A stretch of 64,000 bases of DNA, taken from positions 8,110-72,109 of the forward strand of contig CAZCIU010000006.1 of NCBI GenBank assembly GCA_964498765.1. The letters are read 5' to 3'. This document shows, one piece after another, positions 46,076 to 46,587 of the stretch. The notes below the pieces were generated by a model, which saw nothing but the letters and a program-made list of their open reading frames with translations, had not been told where the DNA came from and did no database searches. Made by a program: the position numbers and the translations under genes. The DNA comes from an uncultured Paludibacter sp. (GTDB lineage Bacteria; Bacteroidota; Bacteroidia; Bacteroidales; Paludibacteraceae). Each line of letters begins with the position of its first letter. The first letter of the stretch is position 1.

Positions 46076-46107
46076 ATTTTATAAGATTAATGTGATAATT
46101 TTTCATA

Positions 46108-46123
46108 CCACATAGATACATAG
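46108..46123. repeat. Left arm of the inverted repeat flanking the GxxExxY gene (CCACATAGATACATAG)
   Basis: Its reverse complement CTATGTATCTATGTGG matches 46553-46568 at 15 of 16 positions. Confidence 0.85.
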
Positions 46124-46127
46124 TTAA

Positions 46128-46541
46128 TTAGCTATTAGGTAATTCTCTGAAATATTCATTGACAAATGTTTTTTGTCCTTCGCTGAAAATATTTGAACAG
46201 TTGAAATTTATTAAAATACCCTTTGGGCATTTTAAGAGTTTCATATAGTTGAGAAGTTGCGCTTCATAATATGGAGTAAATTCTTGAACAGCCTTTATCT
46301 CAACTATCATAGATTGCTCGACATAAAAATCGCAACGAAAATCTACAACTAAATACTTTCCTTTATAGATTGCGGGAATTTTTAACTCTGTTTGAAAATT
46401 TATTTTCCTATGATTAAACTCCTCTATTAAGCATTGATGATACACACTTTCAAGTAATCCACGCCCCATAATCTTATGAACCTCAATAGCTGCACCAATA
46501 ATATCATAAGTAAGTTTATCTAAATAAGCTTTCGTAATCAT
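46128..46541 (-). CDS. GxxExxY-family protein (PD-(D/E)XK-like fold)
   Basis: 137 aa. The name-giving motif appears as GLLESVY. The later D...E.K-type segment reads DFYVEQSMIVEIKA. Confidence 0.8.
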   Translation of the reverse strand: MITKAYLDKLTYDIIGAAIEVHKIMGRGLLESVYHQCLIEEFNHRKINFQTELKIPAIYKGKYLVVDFRCDFYVEQSMIVEIKAVQEFTPYYEAQLLNYMKLLKCPKGILINFNCSNIFSEGQKTFVNEYFRELPNS

Positions 46542-46552
46542 ATAATTATTTT

Positions 46553-46568
46553 CTATGTAACTATGTGG
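46553..46568. repeat. Right arm of the inverted repeat flanking the GxxExxY gene (CTATGTAACTATGTGG)
   Basis: See 46108-46123. Confidence 0.85.
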
Positions 46569-46587
46569 TTCGTAGTAAAAACGTAAA

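Follow-up and report, generated by a model that had tools for sequence, protein, structure and literature searches.

Small nuclease genes that travel with a cognate repeat are known from two described systems. In REPtrons and TIRtrons, genes encoding RAYT or TIRYT proteins of the HUH Y1 type carry REP or terminal inverted repeats on their flanks, and gene-less REPs and REPINs are dispersed (PMC3733652). Ssn proteins are GIY-YIG nucleases specific for single-stranded DNA; their genes have cognate NTS/SRM repeats on the flanks, which are cut as single-stranded DNA, and 42% of the Ssn homologues have a cognate hairpin repeat on both sides (PMC11893778). These are the nearest published parallels to the unit reported here, a gene of the GxxExxY family between two inverted arms, which resembles known nuclease-repeat partnerships; in the literature, such a gene-plus-repeat design was not found described for this protein family. 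A bracket of another kind occurs in 23S rRNA intervening sequences, where an ORF for a four-helix-bundle protein (23S_rRNA_IVP) lies between inverted repeats cut by RNase III. The 23S_rRNA_IVP family was first found within such RNase III-excised rRNA inserts. As for the GxxExxY proteins, a 2012 survey of PD-(D/E)XK proteins listed PDDEXK_3/GxxExxY as "function unknown"; a literature search found no biochemical result for any family member, and full-text mentions are incidental.

We analyzed a window of 64,000 nucleotides from an uncultured Paludibacter sp. (Bacteroidota; Bacteroidales), within which all plain positions below are numbered. Its minus strand carries a glutamate-fermentation operon of glmS (49487-49897), glmL (48071-49447), glmE for methylaspartate mutase E (46588-48039), and mal for methylaspartate ammonia-lyase (44831-46075), and all four genes reach NCBIfam equivalog cutoffs. 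Between glmE, the host gene upstream of the insertion, and mal, the one downstream, lies a gene of 137 codons in the same orientation (46128-46541), assigned to GxxExxY/PDDEXK_3 by HMM matches, invariant residues, and an AlphaFold (AF2) model. The annotated neighbors are glm, mal, and AtuA-like genes. The upstream arm (46553-46569), in gene orientation, begins 18 nt of leftover minus-strand spacer beyond the glmE stop codon (46570-46587) and ends 11 nt 5' of the ATG; the downstream arm (46107-46123), an inverted copy of it, lies 4 nt 3' of the stop codon and is separated from the mal ATG by a leftover spacer of 31 nt (46076-46106). The original prediction, made from the letters alone, had described an order glmS-glmL-glmE-mal broken by a 137-aa GxxExxY ORF with the motif GLLESVY and bracketed, at these two distances, by arms that match at 15 of 16 positions and each hold a CATAG duplication. 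The HMM matches bear out the gene order, the motif is present, and the arms are where they had been placed, with CCACATAGATACATAG at 46108-46123 and its inverted copy at 46553-46568 agreeing at 15/16 positions and each holding two CATAG units 8 nt apart. Extension by one base brings the match to 17 nt (46107-46123/46553-46569; 16/17), and a looser match spans 22 nt at 86%. On the minus strand, the upstream arm reads ACCACATAG-TT-ACATAG.

With one mismatch allowed, the arm 16-mer occurs twice in the window and not once in 100 shuffles, and the 2.98-Mb, 171-contig assembly holds no further copy anywhere. A single ACATAG..ACATAG copy at C38:9452 was considered as an extra arm and set aside as within chance expectation. 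Visual inspection of the stretch from the cassette to mal found no TAnnTTTG promoter-like box, so that the mal transcript probably has to cross the cassette.

The 137-aa protein matches TIGR04256 (GxxExxY) with 131.6 bits and an E value of 1.7e-38 (cutoff, 35 bits) and PF13366 (PDDEXK_3), its sole Pfam match, with 125.8 bits and 1.4e-36 (cutoff, 22 bits). Across 48 sequences, E31, D71, E81, and K83 do not vary and Q95 and Y99 show a conservation of 90% or more; the window protein has all six intact. Together they form an E..D..ExK..QxxxY set, the motif set of the RecB/Cas4 type. In the AF2 model (pLDDT, 95), the best fold match in the PDB is Cas4 SSO0001 (4ic1), followed by alkaline and lambda-type exonucleases, with modest TM scores of 0.44 to 0.53. 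Solved structures related by sequence to the protein were not found. The family is described as having a PD-(D/E)XK-like fold; with its intact catalytic set and Cas4-like model, we predict that the protein is a minimal RecB/Cas4-type PD-(D/E)XK nuclease. It shares the motif set and the best structural match with the Cas4, RecB, and lambda-exonuclease group and differs from that group in size, with 137 aa against at least ~200 aa. PADLOC and PHROGs returned only weak Cas4-like matches; that to the PADLOC Cas4 profile (E value, 6e-4) covers residues 51 to 110, the core 60. An identity as Cas4 itself was rejected on this partial profile match, on the TM range, and on the absence of a cas gene among the annotated neighbors.

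We compared the glmE-mal spacer by a DNA search of 60 relatives. The original prediction had proposed looking for empty-site alleles in related glm-mal operons, and four were found: the two genes adjoin without the cassette in three species of the same genus (G006, G011, and G003) and in one species of another genus (G035), with spacers of 37, 71, 118, and 75 nt, respectively. Among the 60 relatives, the cassette occupies the same site only in the nearest one, G009, where it is 88% identical to the window copy and the host genes glmE and mal are 86 to 87% identical to the window's. The comparison of full and empty loci shows the cassette to be an insertion into the glmE-mal spacer, placed by its distribution in the common ancestor of the window species and its nearest relative. 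A G+C content of 30% and a GC3 of 25%, against 44 to 48% and 41 to 44% in glmE, glmL, and mal, mark the cassette as compositionally foreign to the operon. The spacers at this site have diverged too far to show a target-site duplication, had one been made.

Differences between the window and G009 cassettes fall on codon positions 1, 2, and 3 in numbers of 4, 5, and 27, which indicates that the reading frame was under purifying selection for most of the history of both copies. In G009, a 4-nt deletion after codon 12 breaks the frame, and the remainder, 91% identical, looks selected; the frameshift is either recent decay or an assembly error. Third-codon-position divergence between the two genomes is 20% in the cassette and 34 to 35% in mal and glmE (Fisher's exact test, P = 0.0006), a difference that could reflect later transfer or exchange or equally be an effect of the GC3 of 25%. 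The 118-nt "empty" spacer of G003 (L022; G003:C75, ~2877 to 2994) contains short repeats of the AAAGTTAAAAGATAAAAGTT type, similar to the arms that a 23S_rRNA_IVP cassette of the window genome has at C101:3131, and may once have hosted another element.

To place the bracket in the context of its genome, we took the flanks of 2,065 crude ORFs, 120 nt on either side, and scored the best inverted repeat that matches one flank to the other without gaps. The control distribution has a median of 8, a 95th percentile of 11, and a 99th percentile of 14.5, the last being the score of the glmE-mal cassette gene. GxxExxY proteins occur as many paralogues per genome in some Bacteroidota and cyanobacteria. 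A family search found seven GxxExxY genes in the window genome, and their scores are 29, 23.5, 20, 14.5 (window copy), 13.5, 9.5, and 8.5. Five of the seven are in the top ~2% of the ORFs, and two are weak. The original prediction had also proposed to check whether each of the other paralogues is flanked by the same inverted repeat. Comparable repeats do bracket them (29, 23.5, 20, and 13.5, with two weak), but the arm sequence is not identical and differs from paralogue to paralogue. The paralogues are 30 to 45% identical to the window copy; the one at 45% (C61) has arms with related ACATAG and ACAATAG units, and those at 30 to 34% have arms unrelated to the window cassette's. All five paralogues whose neighbors were checked with Pfam are co-oriented with the flanking ORFs. 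Four lie between the members of operon or co-directional pairs (rmlD|rmlB, leuA|acetyltransferase gene, sufB|sufC, and leuC|leuD), and one, close to the end of a contig, follows the gene for an ABC-2 permease. Comparable repeats around paralogues, empty-site alleles, and a richer A+T content support the original view of a separate cassette that was delivered to the operon.

The outer 17 nt of one paralogue arm (GTCTGAACTGTGATTTT; C41:1444-2084, L001) are dispersed, with ~15 exact copies in the assembly, and this C41 cassette has a third arm copy 160 nt downstream. The hexamer ACATAG/CTATGT is about 3-fold underrepresented in the window genome (609 observed versus ~1,900 expected from base composition) and, despite this scarcity, clusters in cassette arms and gene-less elements.

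In this unbiased ranking, the remaining small genes near the top comprise four genes for 23S_rRNA_IVP and three for Y1_Tnp (IS200-like), so the window genome holds three kinds of repeat-bracketed single-gene units. The four 23S_rRNA_IVP genes (L008:301-672, L011:301-681, L014:301-681, and L015:301-654, on C13, C1, C101, and C30) each have their own arm sequence in a design like that of the GxxExxY cassettes. The three Y1_Tnp genes, with inverted repeats on their flanks (L009:301-744, L010:301-762, and L012:301-756, on C76, C55, and C1), resemble REPtrons/TIRtrons; one adjoins a urocanase gene that is itself bracketed by the same repeat.

We then scanned one genome per species for the subfamily of the window protein and obtained 80 loci, with proteins 67 to 78% identical to it, from Flavobacteriales, Chitinophagales, Cytophagales, Sphingobacteriales, and Bacteroidales. 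Inward-facing C[AG]CATAG was present on both sides in 57 of the 72 relatives with an intact ORF. The consensus subfamily arm is TTAACCACATAG-NN-ACATAG, and in most cases 1 to 5 nt separate it from the ATG or the stop codon; its two CATAG units are ~100% conserved, and the two spacer positions vary. At these positions, the two arms of a cassette agree in 68% and 52% of cases versus 62% and 40% when shuffled across cassettes (P ~ 0.1), so that covariation is not significant, and in G009 both arms have changed at the same spacer position and pairing is not restored. With conserved units and with spacers that show no covariation, sequence-specific recognition of the CATAG units would fit better than pairing alone. 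Conservation of the sequence rather than of the pairing, with an arm type that tracks the protein clade, is also what a protein-recognition site would predict.

Among the 74 to 78 scorable subfamily loci, we counted 47 to 52 distinct neighbor clusters, the largest of which, with 11 or 12 Flavobacterium loci, looks vertically inherited. Within this sample, the scan shows the same arm accompanying the same protein subfamily in about 50 gene neighborhoods across Bacteroidota orders. Order labels need 25 changes on the protein tree (minimum, 5; shuffled mean, 29.8), close to the mixing of random labels; the resolution of this tree is limited by a length of 137 aa. Cassettes between co-directional neighbors are in sense orientation in 55 cases and antisense in 4, a bias that could stem from selection against antisense insertions rather than from a need for host transcription. 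Two contigs binned as "Candidatus Paceibacterota" and Limnohabitans (L072 and L048) carry Bacteroidota-type cassettes, and the protein of L072 has an identical counterpart on a Mariniphaga contig (L080); both cases are probably binning errors rather than cross-phylum transfer.

The arm motif is also found apart from the gene. There are 10 to 38 copies of CACATAGNNNCATAG in each of five genomes with a subfamily gene and 6 to 26 copies in each of five Elizabethkingia species, in which the best relative of the gene is 43 to 54% identical; the reversed control gave 0 or 1 per genome in the same ten genomes. Many copies are plus/minus pairs ~117 nt apart, forming elements of ~130 nt that share both arms, a GTATCGAAGATAC hairpin, and a stretch of 19 to 22 nt identical to the interior of the ORF (CATAGGAAAATAAATTTTC). 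Gene-less elements of other genera match the window ORF at 100% over 18 to 22 nt. The internal 19-mer of the ORF (46394-46412, minus strand, codons His44 to Phe49) recurs identically in such elements; it contains a third CATAG unit and a small palindrome. CATAGRAAA is kept at this place in 41 of 63 cassettes. Synonymous conservation is raised there, as it is in other stretches of the ORF; together, the evidence for this internal module is modest. Arm pairs and single arms that lack the gene are scattered over genomes and face either way with respect to the genes beside them. In the window genome, gene-less elements with ACATAG units and the same type of hairpin core (ATCGAAGAT) occur at C8:46132-46250, C1:118889-118968, and C39:5497-5574.

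Elizabethkingia genomes allowed gain and loss to be followed between species. At one locus (L060), the cassette is full in one species, reduced to both arms and the last ~45 nt of the ORF in two, represented by an eroded single arm in one, and absent in four, with flanks 95 to 98% identical. At another (L063), two species have the cassette and six lack it, with flanks that abut exactly in these six. The L063 insert, the one clean and recent-looking case that could be resolved, has a length of 507 nt and separates a TAnnTTTG box from the ATG of the gene that follows. No target-site duplication accompanies it, and past its arms it includes a further 13 nt on one side and 36 nt on the other, extra DNA for which no donor was found among the loci retrieved. 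Because of the extra DNA outside the arms and the lack of a target duplication, the arms are not demonstrably the ends of a mobile segment at L063. Gene-less elements at two sites differ between species in tandem copy number (1, 2, or 5) and not in position, and a search for clean recent insertions of such elements in Elizabethkingia returned only tandem differences and old empty sites in distant species. At one orthologous site, a 180-nt unit with a gene-less arm pair (G061:C13:541330-541869; L161/L149) is tandemly amplified, with five copies in one species, two in another, and one in four others. From these site comparisons, gain, loss, and decay of the cassettes are established, and transposition by cutting at the arms is a conjecture.

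Two further signs of movement did not survive inspection. The TTAA that often precedes the arm was considered as a palindromic target duplication and rejected, since the clean L063 insertion has neither TTAA nor any duplication; we treat it as part of the arm consensus. An apparent excision footprint, AAC-GGTTAA, perhaps the joined tips of two arms, in four empty Elizabethkingia sites was dismissed because the whole spacer differs there.

Set beside REPtrons and TIRtrons, the GxxExxY cassette has the same outline: a small nuclease-type gene is bracketed by an inverted, subfamily-specific repeat, its copies are intergenic, and the repeat is found apart from the gene as well, often in doublets that form hairpins. 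The enzyme, however, is of the PD-(D/E)XK type and not HUH Y1 (PF01797), the arms are two CATAG units 8 nt apart instead of a REP palindrome, and the cassettes sit in sense inside operons, in a genome that has separate Y1_Tnp genes with repeats of their own. Dispersal of the repeat, a trait of REPtrons, applies to the ten other genomes, with 6 to 38 copies each, and not to the window genome, whose arm has no dispersed copies and which contains related gene-less elements with ACATAG units. The likeness to Ssn lies in a small single-domain nuclease gene between cognate repeats, in the dispersal of those repeats, and in a specificity that varies by homologue; the folds differ (GIY-YIG, cd10448, versus PD-(D/E)XK, the only type to which the Pfam and NCBIfam matches point), and the arm motif is absent elsewhere in the window genome. 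With 23S rRNA intervening sequences, the cassette shares a small ORF closed off by a long-range inverted repeat within a host transcript, and the IVP genes of this genome show the same bracket, but the host here is an mRNA spacer and not an rRNA, and the protein family is another. As the cassette lies in an mRNA spacer and Rfam returned nothing above threshold, an identity as such an intervening sequence was rejected. Like insertion sequences and MITEs, the cassettes have terminal inverted repeats that abut a single ORF, shorter gene-less derivatives whose ends are the same, and presence/absence differences between species; in contrast to them, GxxExxY belongs to no known transposase family. 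Three observations led us to reject an insertion sequence: the missing target duplication, the 13 and 36 nt outside the arms at L063, and the lack of near-identical copies (paralogues at 30 to 45%). A free-standing homing endonuclease was rejected because the 47 to 52 neighbor clusters among 74 to 78 loci show no recurring site.

The reading that we favor, with moderate confidence, is that of a selfish unit of nuclease and cognate repeat that rides on operon transcription. Positions 46107 to 46569 would be self-contained, with a Cas4/RecB-type mini-nuclease between two arms specific to its own subfamily. The gene, having no promoter of its own, would be expressed by read-through from the operon promoter, and the nuclease would recognize its own arms at the DNA level, by their CATAG units. 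A partnership of this sort, comparable to RAYT/REP and Ssn/NTS, would keep gene and arms together and would allow the unit, along with derivatives that lack the gene, to spread or to persist as selfish DNA, moved either by the nuclease itself or, instead, by recombination. Several findings count against this reading, among them the make-up of the L063 insert, the tandem copy number differences of gene-less elements, and the predicted pairing of the arms in the mRNA. In the window genome, the arm is found only at the cassette and at no other place, so nothing proliferates there, and arms persist in other genomes that have a best relative of the gene only 43 to 54% identical.

We are more doubtful that GxxExxY genes and their subfamily-specific two-unit arms form a so far undescribed class of autonomous mobile elements of very small size. 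In this reading, a Cas4-like PD-(D/E)XK nuclease, and no known transposase, would recognize the CATAG-type units and move the cassette, along with the ~130-nt gene-less derivatives in trans, into transcribed intercistronic spacers, where the elements would depend on operon read-through.

A role of the arms in RNA, the alternative named in the original prediction, has a basis in structure prediction. For the 525-nt glmE-mal intercistronic transcript, the minimum free energy and centroid folds both pair the arms (9 bp, a mismatch, and 7 bp), with a fold z-score of -2.98; a search against Rfam gave only sub-threshold noise. An RNA role of this predicted pairing could explain why the arms are retained. 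We think it unlikely, nonetheless, that the arms are kept for mRNA pairing as such, with the stem enclosing the inserted ORF and serving for insulation or for processing (by RNase III, for instance, as in 23S rRNA intervening sequences), and the nuclease having no relation to the arms. In that case, glmE and mal would be expressed normally, and an mRNA with a short leader would be released for the nuclease. Besides the predicted folds and their z-score, this explanation would account for the closeness of the arms to the ORF in most relatives (1 to 5 nt from its ATG and its stop codon), for the sense bias of 55 to 4, and for the company of 23S_rRNA_IVP genes among the other top repeat-scored small genes of the genome. 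Pairing alone, however, predicts compensated drift, and what is seen across orders is constancy of the units and variation of the spacers with no covariation. The dispersal of gene-less arm pairs and single arms in both orientations also speaks against it, and, at 17 bp including a mismatch, the stem is short for an RNase III substrate.

A similarly low probability attaches to a domesticated partnership of the Ssn type. Here, the nuclease would cut its motif, probably as single-stranded DNA, in genomic or incoming DNA and thereby modulate recombination or transformation; the motif would stand beside the gene for autoregulation or by descent, and the unit would not transpose by itself, new copies arising by ordinary horizontal transfer and recombination. 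The precedent is close, as Ssn genes have the cognate hairpin repeat on both sides in 42% of homologues and the enzyme cuts single-stranded DNA (PMC11893778). The gene-less dispersal of the arm motif (6 to 38 per genome), the clean site without target duplication and with co-inserted extra DNA, the copy number shifts by tandem amplification, and the purifying selection on the gene would all agree with such a role. Against it, the motif occurs only at the cassette in the window genome, which leaves the enzyme no other target there; the sister species G009 carries a frameshifted copy; and seven paralogues with different arms in a 3-Mb genome fit selfish units better than a single host function. 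That the gene is instead an old, fixed operon member, as its sense orientation, tight spacing, and purifying selection might suggest, with a flanking repeat that is chance or an ordinary terminator remnant, is extremely improbable, since it is refuted by the empty sites in four relatives and by the same arm with the same subfamily in ~50 unrelated contexts, and the foreign composition and the absence of the arm pattern from shuffles stand against it as well.

GxxExxY proteins are among the commonest uncharacterized small proteins of Bacteroidota and other phyla. The cassette anatomy, with an arm that is specific to the subfamily and made of short conserved units, an intact RecB/Cas4-type site, sense insertion in housekeeping operons, and gene-less derivatives, offers a testable hypothesis for this family. 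For annotation, such cassettes explain why an unrelated small gene interrupts glm-mal, leuCD, sufBC, and rmlDB operons. If the nuclease cuts its own arm, it would add a third enzyme fold to the partnerships formed by RAYT/REP and Ssn/NTS, and compact sequence-specific nucleases could result.
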